From: an uncultured Acidobacteriota bacterium
GTDB taxonomy: Bacteria; Acidobacteriota; Thermoanaerobaculia; UBA5066
Assembly (NCBI GenBank): GCA_963798215.1
Contig: CAWCSP010000004.1
Span: forward strand, 134,751 to 198,750
Direction: 5' to 3'
Length of the DNA: 64,000 nt
Within the stretch, counting starts at the first letter, position 1. Every line of letters begins with the position of its first letter. This document shows, piece by piece, positions 7,975 through 60,280 of this stretch. The position numbers and the translations under genes were made by a program. The notes below the pieces were generated by a model, which worked only from the letters and a program-made list of their open reading frames with translations, was not told where the DNA came from and made no database searches.

Positions 7975-8664
7975 GTGATCCTGTTCGAGAACGAAGACGT
8001 CCTCGCGCTGGACAAGCCGCCGGGCGTCTCGATGGCGACGTCCTCGCGGCCGGGTTCGGCCCTGGAGGCCGTGCGCCGCCTCCTCGCGGCGTGCGGGGTC
8101 GCGGAACCGCAGCCGCTCCCGCTCCTCGTCCACCGGCTGGACGTCGGGACGAGCGGCGTCGTCCTTCTCGCGAAGAGCGACGCGGCTCACCGGGCGCTCT
8201 CTCGCGCCTTTCAGGAGCGGACGGCGAAGAAGACCTATCGCGCGCTCGTGTGGGGTCACCCCGTCCCGGTGCGCGGCACGATCGACCTCGCGCTCGCCCG
8301 CGACCCGAAGGACGGCCGGAAGATGCGCGTCGCGAAGGACGGGAAGCCCTCGGTCACGGCTTACGAGACGCTGATGCGTGTCCCCTCGCTCGCCGACATG
8401 AGGCTCTCGCCGGAGACGGGGAGGACGCACCAGATCCGTGTCCACCTCTCCGCGAAGGGGCACCCGATCGCCGGTGACGATTTCTACGGCGGCGCGACGC
8501 GCTGGCGAGGCATCCGCGACGCGGCGCTGCGCGCGGCGCTGCAGCGCCTCACGCACCCGCTCCTCCACGCCGAGCGGATCGTGATTCCGGAAATGGGAAT
8601 CGACGTGGACGCGCCTCTGCCGCCGGACTTCGAGGAGATCAGGAGGATTTGCTTAGAAAGGTGA
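7975..8664 (+). CDS. rluA: RluA-family 23S/tRNA pseudouridine synthase
   Basis: GTG start. Catalytic HRLDxxTSG motif (VHRLDVGTSGVVLLAK) and the TGRTHQIRVH motif. The 3' end (ICLER*) is encoded by the left arm of repeat copy A. Confidence 0.8.
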   Translation: MILFENEDVLALDKPPGVSMATSSRPGSALEAVRRLLAACGVAEPQPLPLLVHRLDVGTSGVVLLAKSDAAHRALSRAFQERTAKKTYRALVWGHPVPVRGTIDLALARDPKDGRKMRVAKDGKPSVTAYETLMRVPSLADMRLSPETGRTHQIRVHLSAKGHPIAGDDFYGGATRWRGIRDAALRAALQRLTHPLLHAERIVIPEMGIDVDAPLPPDFEEIRRICLER

Positions 8665-8700
8665 ATGAGAGAGGAGCCCTATTCACCTTCTAAGAAAAGC
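8647..8700. repeat. Palindromic MITE/REP-like element, copy A (54 bp, minimal form)
   Basis: Left arm ATTTGCTTAGAAAGGTGAAT and right arm ATTCACCTTCTAAGAAAAGC form a near-perfect inverted repeat around a 14-bp core. Lies between convergent rluA and lhr. Confidence 0.7.
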
Positions 8701-8747
8701 GGCGATGCCGGAGCGCGGGCGCCACGCGAAAAGCGACGCCCGCCCGA

Positions 8748-11700
8748 TCAGAGGGCCCGCCAGACCAGCTTCCCGAGGTCCCGCGTAAACGCGATCGCTT
8801 CGAGGAGCGGAGCGAGCGGGGCGCTCGCGGCGGGCCGGGCGTTCACGCTCGAAACCGCCAGCCGGCGCGGCCGTCCGAGGGGATCGCGCGAGCGCCGGAC
8901 GAGGTCCTGAAGGGCGCCGAGGGCGGCCCTGAGCGTCCGGTCCGTCGCCGTGGCGGCGGTCTCGAGCGCGCCCGCGCCGTCGAGCGAGAAGAGGACCTCG
9001 CCGCCCGCGAGCGCGACCCAGCCATCGCGCGCGTCGAGCCCCTCGAGGACGGGGTCGGCCGCGCCCGCCACGGCGAGGGCGGGCTCGTCGCCCGACGGGC
9101 GCTCGACCCGGCGCAGGGTCTCGACGGTCTCCTCGTCGGCGTACTGGACCGGACCGCGCCCCTCGAGGAACTCGCCGCGGCGGAGGTCGCCGCGCATCTC
9201 CATGCGCGCGAAGACGGGCGCGACGTCCGGCCAGCGGATGAGAGAGGCGTCCTCGCGCTCGAGCGTCGCGCGCGACACGACGCCCCAGCGAGCGAGAAGA
9301 AGCCGCGCCCACGCCTCGGCGCGCTCGTCCGCTCGCAACGGCTCGCCGGCGACGCCGGGGGAGTCGAGGAGCGACCACCTGCCCGAGGGGAGTGAAGAGG
9401 GAGCCGAGAGAGAAGACCGGGGATTTCTTGGAAGGTGAATAGGGCCCGGGGAAAGTTGCGGGCTCGCGAGGCGCGCGGAGACTCTCCTCTCGGCGTCGCG
9501 CAGCGCCTGCCGGGAGGGCCGCACACCCTCCGGGTGCAGCGCGGCCGCCGCCCCCTGAGACGCAGCTGTCACGCGCCTTCTAAGCAATATCTCTCTGAAT
9601 CCCTGTATTCCGTCGCCCGTGACCAGCCCTGCCAGAACGAGCTCGACGACGGCTCTTGCGAGCGCGGGCTCCACGCCGCGCTCGCCGCGCGCGACGAGGT
9701 CCGACAGGAAGGACGCGCCGGAGACGGCGAGCTTCCCGTAGAGCTCGCGGGCCGCAGGCGAGAGGCCGTTGAGCGCGGCGACGCCCGGGGGCAGGAGAAC
9801 CGCGCCCTCGCCCCGGAAGAAGAACGACAGCCGCGCGGCGCGCGGGTTCTTGACGCCCTCGGCTCGCCAGACGAGGAGTCCGCGCGCCGACAGGACGTCC
9901 AGCGCGTCGGGCTCCGGCGCCGCGAGACGCGCCGGAAGGAGCGAGGCCTCCCACGCGAGCGCGGGCAACGCCAGGCCCCGCAGGAGGCCGACGGCGCGCT
10001 CGGCCGCGTTCGGGCCCGCGAAACGCGCGCCGAGGGCGACGCCCTGGCGCGTCGCGAGGAACGCCCGGTACGCGGCGAGCGGCACCGGGCGGATCTCGTG
10101 CCGGAGGATCCCGAGCGACTTCCGCCGGACGTTCTCGGCGAGGCGCGCGCCCGCCCAGCGCAACGCCCCGTCCGGCGCGCCGAAGCGCGCGCGGACGACA
10201 AGCGCGTCGAGCCGCAGCGCCTCGAGGGCGGCCTCGACCTGCACCGCCGGGACGCCGTAACGCGCGGTGAACTCCGAGACGAGCGCGGGGCCCCTTGTCG
10301 CGAAGAACCGGAGGACGATCCGCTCCAGAGGCGAGGGGGCCGCCGACCCACTCGAGGCGACGCCGTGCACGGGGAAGGGGCGTTGAAGATCTTCTTCGAA
10401 TGCACGTGAGGGCGGTGGGGCGACCGAAGCCGGATCGCCGCGTCGGTCGGCGCCGCCCTTGTCGAGGGTGCGGCCGAGGGCGGAATTCCAAAGGTCCACC
10501 TCCTCCGCGGCGACGAACCTCCATTCACCTTCTAAGCAAAGCGCCATGACGCTCTGCCGCGCCACCAGCTCGTCGAGCCACGTCTTCCCCTCTCCGGAGC
10601 AGCGTTCTTCGATCTCGTCTTTGGTCAGGTCTCCAAGCTCCTGGAAGAACGAGAGAAGCTCGTCCGCCGTCCGCGCCATGCGCTGCGGGACGAGGCGCGA
10701 GGCCTCGGCGCGCGCGGCATCGGCGGCCTCCGGCTTCAGGGCGTCGGGCAGCGTCTCGCCGAGCACCTCGCCGAGAAGCTCGCGGTTCATCGCGAGCGCG
10801 TGGATCCCGCGCTCGGCCTTCGGCGCGTCCCACTCGTACAGGTACGCCGCGACGAAGTTGAAGAGGAGCGACTGCGCGGCCGGCGACGGGAGCTTCCGCG
10901 CGTCGACCGTCCGGCCGACGCCGCCGGAGGCGAGGTCGTCGAGGAGCCGGAAGAGGCGGTCCGTCTCCCAGACGTCGCGCAGGCAGTCGCGGTACGTCTC
11001 GGCGACGATCGGGAAATCCGGGAGGCCGCGCGTCGTCTGGAGGAGGTCGCGCGCGCGCATGCGCTGCAGCCAGAACGGCGTCCGCTTTCCCGACCGGGCG
11101 CGCGGGAGGAGGAGCGCGCGCTGGGCGTTCTCGCGGAAGCGCGCCCCGAAGAGCGCGGAGTTCGGAAGGTCGGCAAGGAGGCGTTCGCGGGCCTCGCCGG
11201 ACGTCAGGCGCGCGAGACGCTCCAGCGGCACCTCGCGCTCGGCGCGCGGGAGGCGCAGGAGGATCCCGTCGTCCGTCGCGACGGCCTCCGCCTCGACGCC
11301 CGTCTGCTCGGAGAGGATGCCGGCCAGCGCGAGCGACCACGGGACGTTCACGCCTTTCCCGAAGAGCGAGCGTACGACGACGCACGGGTCGCCGAGCTCG
11401 TTCGGGAACGTCTCGAAGACGACGAGCGTGTCGGAGGCGACGCCCGGCGACTCGAACGCTTCCCGGCGGATCCCCGCGACGAGCGCAGCGGCCGCGTCGG
11501 GGTCGCAGCCGTAGCGCGCATGCAGGAAGTCCGGCAGCGCGGGGTCGTCGAGGCGCTCCGCGATCGTCCGCTTGAGCCGCCCGACGCGCGCGGCGAGCTT
11601 CGCCGTCCGGCCGAGGCCCTCGCCCCGCCAGAAGGGCATCTTCGCGGGCGCGCCCGCGGCGTCCTCGACGACGACGCGGTCGTGGTGGATGTCGATCGCG

Positions 11701-59454: not shown

Positions 59455-60116
59455 TGGCGAAGCTCGACCGCGACGGGATCATCCGGCGCGCCGCGCAGGA
59501 GCTGCGCGACGGGATGGTCGTGAACCTCGGCATCGGGATGCCGACGCTCGTCTCGAACTTCATCCCGAAGGGCATGGAGGTGGTTCTCCAGTCCGAGAAC
59601 GGCATTCTCGGGATGGGCCCGTACCCGACGGAGGCGGAGCTCGACGCCGACCTCATCAACGCGGGCAAGGAGACGGTCACGGTCATCCCGGGTGCCTCGT
59701 TCTTCTCGTCGGCCGACTCCTTCGCGATGATCCGCGGCGGCCACGTCGACCTCTGCATCCTGGGCGCGATGCAGGTCGACGCCGAGGGCTCGATCGCGAA
59801 CTGGATGATCCCCGGCCGGCTCGTGAAGGGGATGGGCGGCGCGATGGACCTGGTCGCGGCGACGCGCCGGATCGTCGTCACGATGGAGCACGTCGCGAAG
59901 AACGGCGAGAAGAAGATCCTGAACCGCTGCACGCTGCCGCTCACCGGGCGTGCGTGCGTGCACCGCATCGTGACGGACCTCGCCGTCCTCGACGTCAAGC
60001 CGGGCGGAGGCCTGAGGCTCGTCGAGCGCGCCCCCGGCATCACGGTCAACGAGATCCGCGCCGCGACCGAGCCGCTGCTGGACGCCGCCGCCGACGTGCC
60101 CGAGATGAGAGTCTGA
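59454..60116 (+). CDS. scoB: 3-oxoacid CoA-transferase subunit B
   Basis: TGATG overlap with scoA. Beta-subunit motifs including SENG (active-site Glu in [11 protein letters not shown]). Confidence 0.85.
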
Positions 60117-60167
60117 GGGGCGCGCCGATTGCTCTTGCGCGACACGTGCGACGTTTCGGCACGGGCG

Positions 60168-60280
60168 ACGGTCTGCAAATTTCTTCGAAGGTGAATGGGG
60201 CCCGGGGCGCGCCGGTGCGCCGCATCCGCGCCGGGGCGGCGCACCACGCCGAGACGCTCCTTCACCCTTCTAAGAAAATC
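60168..60280. repeat. Palindromic element copy F (113 bp) in the 5' region of lptD
   Basis: Left arm AATTTCTTCGAAGGTGAATGGGGCCCGGGG and right arm CTCCTTCACCCTTCTAAGAAAATC. The interior is related to copy B. Confidence 0.65.

Follow-up and report, generated by a model that had tools for sequence, protein, structure and literature searches.

Convergent pairs of a conserved ~20-bp box occur between and within genes of Thermoanaerobaculia

We analysed a stretch of 64,000 nucleotides from an uncultured Acidobacteriota bacterium of the class Thermoanaerobaculia (contig CAWCSP010000004.1, positions 134,751 to 198,750, corresponding to the 974-kb contig_34464 of ENA assembly ERZ25039489; hereafter the window) and found that it carries six copies, pairs A to F, of a dispersed family of inverted repeats. 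The repeated unit is a box of ~17-22 bp, composed of a purine-rich tail, (A/T)TTTCTTNGAAGGTGAA and (G/T)AGGG. Boxes lie in convergent pairs, with their purine-rich tails outward and arbitrary DNA between them, and they occupy intergenic DNA as well as open reading frames (ORFs), which remain in frame. One consensus is common to the clade, arms are independent of their partners, and boxes originate in place by substitution; occasionally, a whole pair or a box with its CT-rich tail was inserted instead. An earlier note on this DNA had taken the copies for intergenic palindromes resembling miniature transposable elements with inverted repeats (MITEs) or repetitive extragenic palindromes (REPs). 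The dispersed family with inverted-repeat ends proved to be genuine, whereas much of this description did not hold. Our tentative interpretation, which we consider somewhat short of an even chance, is that the boxes may be paired convergent recognition sites for a lineage-specific DNA-binding or DNA-processing protein, their single consensus being kept by selection or by a conversion drive.

The sequence CCTTCTAAG occurred six times in the window, compared with 0.02 occurrences expected from shuffles. Similarly, the 13-mer TTCACCTTCTAAG had five matches when up to two mismatches were allowed (0.12 expected) and a 14-mer had six with up to three (0.51 expected). The window has a G+C content of 68-78%, and nine of its 15 AT-rich patches, taken as clusters of 10-mers with at least eight A/T, were arms of these elements. 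A scan with the 16-mer TTTCTTAGAAGGTGAA, using one genome per species, returned at least 115 loci. Among the matches listed, 75 of the 115 loci exceeded 60% G+C and were nearly all titled as Thermoanaerobaculia or Acidobacteriota metagenome-assembled genomes (MAGs), representing more than 20 MAG species, so that the motif is by no means confined to the window; the other 40 were chance occurrences in low-GC genomes. No boxes were present in 22.8 kb of a Holophagales relative of equal G+C, the MAG GCA_016716705.1. A phage link was considered and rejected, as all 120 viral-contig matches were low-GC chance occurrences, and no viral or insertion sequence (IS) context was found for the boxes. In agreement with the view that the family is not annotated, Rfam searches of the window and five loci gave only tRNA at gathering thresholds and no match over the elements at permissive thresholds, and nothing relevant on the motif or on repeats of Thermoanaerobaculia was found in the searchable literature.

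Arms and pairs were counted in a 654-kb high-GC set, which comprised the window, two Lhr loci (L001 and L002) and the high-GC loci from the 16-mer scan. In this set, 323 arms lay within two mismatches of TTCTTAGAAGG, compared with 95 in a reversed-sequence control, and 105 inward-facing pairs of 33-361 nt were found, with a mode of 84-102 nt. An inward-facing partner within 330 nt (score of at least 18) accompanied 46 of 69 perfect boxes (67%), and the corresponding figure for the outward side was 1 of 69. Among 74 pair sizes the distribution was continuous from 47 to ~300 bp, without size classes, and showed an abrupt lower limit at ~74 bp, the 47-bp pair being the single exception. The density was about one pair per 7-10 kb. 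A 5.3-bp periodicity of the spacing (nominal Rayleigh p ~3e-4, uncorrected) was discarded because it failed under multiple testing and orthologue duplicates. Strand polarity was likewise rejected: all six perfect CCTTCTAAG sites of the window are on the + strand (8686, 9576, 10528, 50459, 53924 and 60266), whereas the larger sample gave 32 vs 40, and box orientation there was concordant neither within loci nor with the gene strand.

The information profile of 176 box instances was bell-shaped, with no sharp terminus. Positions -4 to +12, corresponding to (A/T)TTTCTTNGAAGGTGAA, were strongly conserved, the purine-rich tail decayed outside the box (it is seen as a CT-rich tail past the partner box), and (G/T)AGGG formed the inner edge. 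At the consensus position N, A was the most frequent nucleotide, followed by C and then by T or G; the TTCGAA variant avoids the TAA that the consensus would give in one reading frame. The box has no GTAG or CGTC tag and no usable self-hairpin, and direct reading of the sequence revealed no internal dyad within single boxes. Interiors were alike only among orthologues and unrelated between other copies. The interior that the earlier note had described as common to pairs B and F, GAAGGTGAAT(A/G)GGGCCCGGGG, is indeed present, but it corresponds to the box plus the G-rich inner edge of the family consensus. Outer flanks form subfamilies (GAAGA…TCTTC, CCGGGGA…TCCCCGG, GTT…AAC and CTGCAAAT…ATTTGCAG) that extend the inverted repeat by a few bases in variants, with examples at L045 7076-7199, L082 1362-1446, L086 2604-2688 and window 60170-60180. 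The flank GACGGTCTGCAAAT of pair F, considered as a sign of orthology, was rejected because it belongs to such an outer-arm subfamily.

Contrary to the description of the elements as intergenic, at least 20 of 74 pairs (at least 27%, by a conservative compositional test) were intragenic, and this fraction is a lower bound since the test overlooked some established cases and since gene callers based on the G+C content of third codon positions (GC3) are unreliable here and missed ispE. Pfam searches and translations placed in-frame pairs of relatives in Ser/Thr kinases (L036, L099), UvrD (L041), DnaE (L063), RNase R (L083, L047), AlaRS (L077) and in a radical-SAM, a CHAT and a PIG-L protein, and IspE (L011) and a LysA-like gene also host box pairs. 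Read-through in frame was checked in ten ORFs besides lhr. Each box has two open frames out of three, which encode FLEGE or LRR in one arm and SPSKK or FEE in the opposite arm, and the AT-rich box codons persist against a GC3 of ~0.9. A protein-level motif was rejected: the boxes are read in different frames (L-E-G-E-W at pair C, L-R-R at pair B) and with rare AT-rich codons, which points to a nucleotide-level feature and not to a shared coding motif.

Comparisons with homologues indicated how boxes came to lie in these genes. The kinase aligned without gaps to M. tuberculosis PknA from before the left box (EDFLEGEE vs SEFSSDPE) to the right box (YSFEE vs HDYGE), the only extra being a Ser tract of 7 aa, for which the CT tail codes. 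Both boxes of IspE were gapless relative to the solved IspE structure PDB 8qcc, and one of them reads IHLSKRIP, which is the canonical IxLxKxIP motif, coded as ATT CAC CTT TCT AAG AGA ATC CCC. LysA-like orthologues had equal length and differed in both boxes, 283 nt apart, by point substitutions only; the box-poor orthologue still had 11 of 18 and 12 of 17 consensus positions. In lhr, the stretches between and beside the arms (PSRxALRxAExRV and GExRFVAAEE) were conserved in homologues without boxes, and in a Holophagales MAG the orthologous box sites are ordinary GC-rich codons. Similarly, the box of DnaE lies over an ancestral GEE, and only a 10-aa GA-rich tail was inserted. Since the alignments are gapless and the orthologues carry point substitutions only, boxes were written in place with rare AT-rich codons; judging from these alignments, those of the kinase, IspE, the LysA-like gene and lhr appear to have arisen by substitution and not by insertion.

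Insertion did occur elsewhere. Pair A has an empty orthologous junction in L002, and an 84-91-bp pair that occupies an intergenic site of L107 is missing from that site in both L029 and L074. The comparison of orthologous loci suggested by the earlier note thus yielded two filled/empty sites, but neither showed a target-site duplication. Such sites are what would be expected of a selfish hairpin-forming repeat of the REP, REPIN (REP doublet), Rickettsia palindromic element (RPE) or MITE kind, in which a transposase or an enzyme like the REP-associated tyrosine transposase (RAYT) would move box-bounded units, and arms in place would be secondary, for example by template switching, which has been published as one origin of coding palindromes (PMC6649704). 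Inverted ends, long predicted hairpins, the RNase R domains lengthened by exactly one element and the half-element insertions (13 aa in L045, the 10-aa GA tail of DnaE and the 7-aa Ser tract of the kinase) fit this explanation as well, and the survival of copies in frame would be explained by two of the three frames being open. Nevertheless, we found no target-site duplication, no sharp termini, no viral or IS context and no interiors common to non-orthologous copies, and the boxes lack the GTAG or CGTC tag given as a REP hallmark in PMC3733652. Both arms of the kinase, IspE, LysA-like and lhr pairs are in place, so that whole-element insertion of the RPE type holds for the RNase R domain (RNB) and fails for these four. 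In addition, arms follow the family consensus and not their own partner, with which they do not covary; this contradicts both hairpin selection and partner-templated conversion. We consequently regard a selfish repeat as rather unlikely, and the discrete MITE of the earlier note, with its expectation of defined ends, did not stand up to unrelated interiors and arms acquired by substitution.

The independence of the arms was evident from several comparisons. Among the orthologues of the window, L001 and L002, arms were 82% identical (112 of 136 positions) and coding flanks 70% (603 of 856); this comparison was not motif-seeded and is hence unbiased, while the figure from seeded loci (84% vs 75%) is inflated by ascertainment. 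Within the box, true partners had 898 Watson-Crick-compatible positions and shuffled partners 907 +/- 11. Pairing excess was likewise absent from the tails, from the inner edge and from the variable position N, which is uncompensated. Among pairs with an assignable direction of transcription, G·U-type mismatches (51) were not preferred over A·C-type mismatches (57) on the sense strand. Arms were closer to the family consensus than to their own partner. The lack of covariation and of a G·U preference indicates that selection does not act on hairpin pairing, be it of RNA or of single-stranded DNA, and the independence of arms from partners means that partner-templated conversion is no explanation either.

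These results also bear on an RNA-level cis element, in which base pairing between the two boxes of a transcript would create a stem for stability, termination or processing. In one version, the pair would be a bidirectional Rho-loading module, either strand presenting a 5′ GA-rich segment, a stem and a G-poor, CU-rich tail. Folded in silico, as the earlier note had suggested, all six window pairs gave long hairpins, and the symmetry of the GA and CT tails, together with locations behind genes, in 5′ leaders and between genes that converge, would suit such a role. However, the absence of compensatory covariation and of a G·U over A·C preference weakens the idea of a REP-like regulatory palindrome. 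Furthermore, pairs had no strand bias relative to genes, none of them had a sigma-70 promoter or an intrinsic terminator consensus (GC stem plus U tract), Rfam gave no match even at permissive thresholds, and structure alone leaves unexplained why one fixed sequence recurs at all loci. An RNA element is therefore improbable in our judgement.

Boxes that are independent of each other and lack transposon hallmarks could also be the analogue of an uptake signal such as the DNA uptake sequence (DUS) or the uptake signal sequence (USS), single boxes building up in place by biased uptake and recombination, or by another transfer-linked drive, with pairs as a by-product. Over-representation on both strands throughout the clade, codon choice that writes the motif into ORFs at pre-adapted peptides (GEE, IxLxKxIP), a graded series from decayed to perfect sites (L017 vs L094) and the presence of repair and replication genes among the hosts (lhr, uvrD, dnaE) are in keeping with it. 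Uptake, however, gives no reason why 67% of boxes should be arranged in pairs that are strictly convergent, at distances of 47-300 bp and inside ORFs too. Moreover, the motif is far longer than known uptake cores, and one pair per 7-10 kb is roughly ten-fold below DUS or USS density as generally known. We give an uptake signal only a small probability.

The same convergent pairs around arbitrary DNA, both intergenic and intragenic, recall invertons, for which the boxes would be the inverted-repeat sites of a master site-specific invertase, intergenic pairs acting as switches and intragenic pairs recoding proteins. A single genome-wide consensus, independent arms and a lower size limit near 74 bp would agree with this, and intragenic examples down to 57 bp have been documented (PMC10028968). 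Against it, a flipped interior was seen in none of 15 orthologous comparisons, bearing in mind that consensus assemblies would hide minority orientations; an apparent inversion between L013 and L061 turned out to be an artefact of orientation calling, the interiors being colinear. Flipping segments of DnaE, IspE, AlaRS or the LysA-like protein would wreck essential enzymes, hundreds of sites per genome are far above those of known master invertases, and an internal dyad, which a recombinase core site should have, is missing from the boxes. Invertons thus appear very improbable.

Turning to paired recognition sites, a protein restricted to this Thermoanaerobaculia lineage would recognise the specific sequence of each box, most probably in duplex DNA. 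The protein may act on two inward-facing boxes jointly, in a manner like synapsis by a recombinase-, transposase- or bridging-type protein, and the consensus would be held by selection or by a conversion-type molecular drive and not by a transposing unit. Recognition boxes of this sort would account for the bell-shaped profile, the independent arms, the strict convergent geometry and the arbitrary interiors. They would also explain why boxes arose in place at pre-adapted peptides, why AT-rich codons persist and why the consensus is identical across the class. In a broader form, which we hold to be possible but doubtful, a whole class would be writing ~20-bp, ~25-bit convergent box pairs into essential genes and intergenic DNA, with neither transposition nor hairpin selection, as a new genome-wide molecular drive or chromosome-marking system whose reader would be a novel DNA-binding or DNA-processing protein of the lineage.

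Several observations weigh against paired recognition sites. Between 22 and 33% of perfect boxes had no clear partner, and the 74 pair sizes showed no helical phasing near 10.5 bp. Related loci were seeded with perfect 16-mers and therefore form a biased sample, and the covariation test was run in gapless register, which scores bulged arms imperfectly. Insertions are a further difficulty: the Pfam match of the RNase R RNB domain is longer by the exact element length (+46 and +28 aa), indicating insertion of a whole pair, one orthologue of this case has a box and CT tail alone (13 aa, L045), and the pair of L107 lacking from L029 and L074 has already been described. True insertions need an extra mechanism beyond a pure binding-site model. 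Finally, no protein candidate for box recognition was identified, and for a ~25-bit motif at hundreds of sites weak selection per site would hardly be enough, so that a drive must be invoked as a further assumption.

Within the window, the coordinates in the earlier note were off by no more than a few bases for five pairs (A, B, D, E and F). Those of C had to be corrected, as there is no arm at its proposed left end (~10486) and the true arm, GAAGATCTTCTTCGAATG, lies at 10386-10403. The proposed placement was right for A and E, between convergent genes, for D, upstream of accC, and for F, upstream of the lptD signal peptide, whereas B and C are inside the 1526-aa lhr ORF. Pair A (8647-8700, 54 bp) comprises a left box ATTTGCTTAGAAAGGTGAAT (8647-8666) with a 1-nt bulge and a right box ATTCACCTTCTAAGAAAAG (8681-8699). 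It is located between an rluA-like ORF (7975-8664) and the convergent lhr stop (8748), and its left box contains the TAG stop codon of the rluA-like ORF (8662-8664). A small predicted membrane-protein ORF of L013 (~5210-5332, minus strand) also ends at a box TAG; boxes thus sometimes set the C-termini of ORFs.

Pairs B and C belong to lhr (8748-13328, minus strand), which encodes an Lhr-type helicase with the Pfam domains DEAD, Helicase_C, WH_Lhr, DEAD_assoc, WH2_Lhr, WH3_Lhr and WH4_Lhr and whose relatives are found in Thermoanaerobaculia and Holophagales MAGs. The ORF is uninterrupted through both pairs, with Pfam domains on either side; pair B falls between WH3 and WH4, and pair C starts within the WH2 match. 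Local GC3 dips at the arms, and the sole TTA codon of the gene is within a box of pair C. The boxes of pair B (9423-9590, 168 bp) lie at 9423-9440 (ATTTCTTGGAAGGTGAAT) and 9573-9588 (GCGCCTTCTAAGCAAT), sites that are also occupied in L001 and L002; the upstream box is translated as L-L-R-R-R and the interior codes for the conserved Lhr stretch PSRQALRDAERRVSARL. Pair C (10386-10541, 156 bp) combines the variant box described above with a perfect box ATTCACCTTCTAAGCAAAG (10523-10541), whose L-E-G-E-W reading is placed on top of the ancestral GEER of the WH2_Lhr domain, and a lineage-specific insertion of ~41 aa lies between the two. In L001, a related 309-kb contig, lhr (6800-11410) was called as fragments of 426 and 469 aa with uncalled gaps and apparent frameshifts, which are possibly long-read assembly errors rather than biology.

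The other three pairs are intergenic. Pair D (50372-50476, 105 bp), with a degenerate left box GATTTCTTCGAGTATGAG and a right box CCCCTTCTAAGAAATC (50457-50472), lies between the end of a carboxyltransferase gene (50339) and the accC ATG (50494), its own end being ~20 nt upstream of that ATG. Pair E, including its tails, spans 53840-53957. It opens with a GA-rich tail and box GAAGATTTTCTTAGAAAGGTG (53840-53860), and beyond a GC-rich interior follow box CTCTTCACCTTCTAAGAAGTC (53917-53937) and a CT-rich tail that reaches ~53957. The pair separates a thioredoxin-like gene (end 53820) from a convergent kinase-TonB_C gene (end 53956). The latter (53956-55899, minus strand, 647 aa) unites a partial protein-kinase domain with a C-terminal TonB_C domain, an unusual combination, and its stop is overlapped by a third, degenerate box-like stretch TAATTCTTGAAGGG (53957-53970) right after the CT tail. 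Pair F (60177-60279, 103 bp; boxes AAATTTCTTCGAAGGTGAAT at 60177-60196 and CTTCACCCTTCTAAGAAAAT at 60260-60279) follows a CoA-transferase gene (end 60116) and precedes the lptD signal peptide (TTG 60296). In the public annotation lptD begins at 60146, and its frame would continue across pair F (…SSKVNG…HPSKK…) before reaching the signal peptide; the annotated start is probably wrong, the TTG at 60296 being more plausible. No Shine-Dalgarno (SD) sequence precedes the starts of accC and lptD (window 50470-50496 and 60275-60300) or of an L107 gene (~2300-2330), as in TCAATTTCTTCTC-ATG, and translation initiation in the clade may largely proceed without SD pairing. Outside the window, three box pairs are crowded into 1 kb of L011 (3900-5611) and of the orthologous L030 (3350-4300): ispE holds one of them, and the neighbouring ORF on the minus strand holds the other two. 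This hot spot, conserved between two species, is next to a tRNA gene (L011 3808-3879).

The boxes have consequences for their hosts. Those written in place in catalytic cores (IspE, Ser/Thr kinases, DnaE, LysA-like) cost rare codons and altered residues, and boxes add low-complexity linkers rich in Ser/Leu/Pro or Glu/Lys/Arg to proteins, supply stop codons and may mislead gene callers, as with the lptD start upstream of pair F. A cognate protein, should one exist, would represent a new system of DNA recognition with targets at hundreds of genomic sites; a conversion drive, if one is at work, would be a new case of sequences spreading through bacteria in a non-Mendelian manner.

As a rule, repeats dispersed in bacterial genomes are classed either as mobile units (MITE, REP, RPE) or as short genome-wide words such as Chi, the FtsK-orienting polar sequences (KOPS), DUS/USS and parS. 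The present family resembles RPEs in being a dispersed palindromic repeat found between genes and, translated in frame, in housekeeping ORFs, as in the RNase R, UvrD and AlaRS linker cases. RPEs, however, are insertions conserved over their whole length (see also PMC6649704), whereas here only the ~20-bp ends are conserved and in several genes these ends flank ancestral coding sequence without any insertion. With REPs, bacterial interspersed mosaic elements (BIMEs) and REPINs associated with RAYT, the family shares hundreds of short inverted units per genome, vertical retention and inverted doublets. REPs are described in PMC3733652 as extragenic, each unit being an imperfectly palindromic hairpin that bears a GTAG or CGTC tag; in contrast, the boxes have no tag, do not form palindromic hairpins by themselves, are found in ORFs as well and have arms that do not covary. 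The family recalls MITEs such as Correia/NEMIS by its terminal inverted repeats, its size range of 50-300 bp and the presence or absence of pairs at some sites, but boxes have no target-site duplication, conserved interior, size class or sharp termini, and no parent IS or transposase with box ends was seen in the loci inspected, a dedicated search of complete genomes not having been made.

DUS of Neisseria and USS of Pasteurellaceae are similar in that a motif is over-represented on either strand throughout a clade, is accommodated in ORFs through the choice of codons, has an information profile that is graded and sometimes forms inverted pairs after genes; the boxes differ in being longer, about ten-fold rarer and overwhelmingly arranged in convergent pairs 47-300 bp apart, even in ORFs. 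Intragenic invertons (Chanin et al., PMC10028968) are also inverted-repeat pairs that bracket short segments of coding and intergenic DNA, but here no flipped allele was seen, essential catalytic cores are targeted and one consensus serves hundreds of sites. Similarly, the coding palindromes of Nematomorpha mitochondria (PMC6649704) are inverted repeats accommodated in functional coding sequence by codon degeneracy and gained or lost between species; those palindromes, however, are gene-specific with perfectly complementary arms, in contrast to the single family consensus and the arms not matched to partners that we observed. Altogether, the family is partly RPE-like, by its in-frame translation, partly DUS/USS- or parS-like, by being written in place, and MITE-like only superficially. 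Among known types it stands between mobile units and genome-wide words, as a long, information-rich and obligatorily paired box common to an under-studied class of Acidobacteriota.

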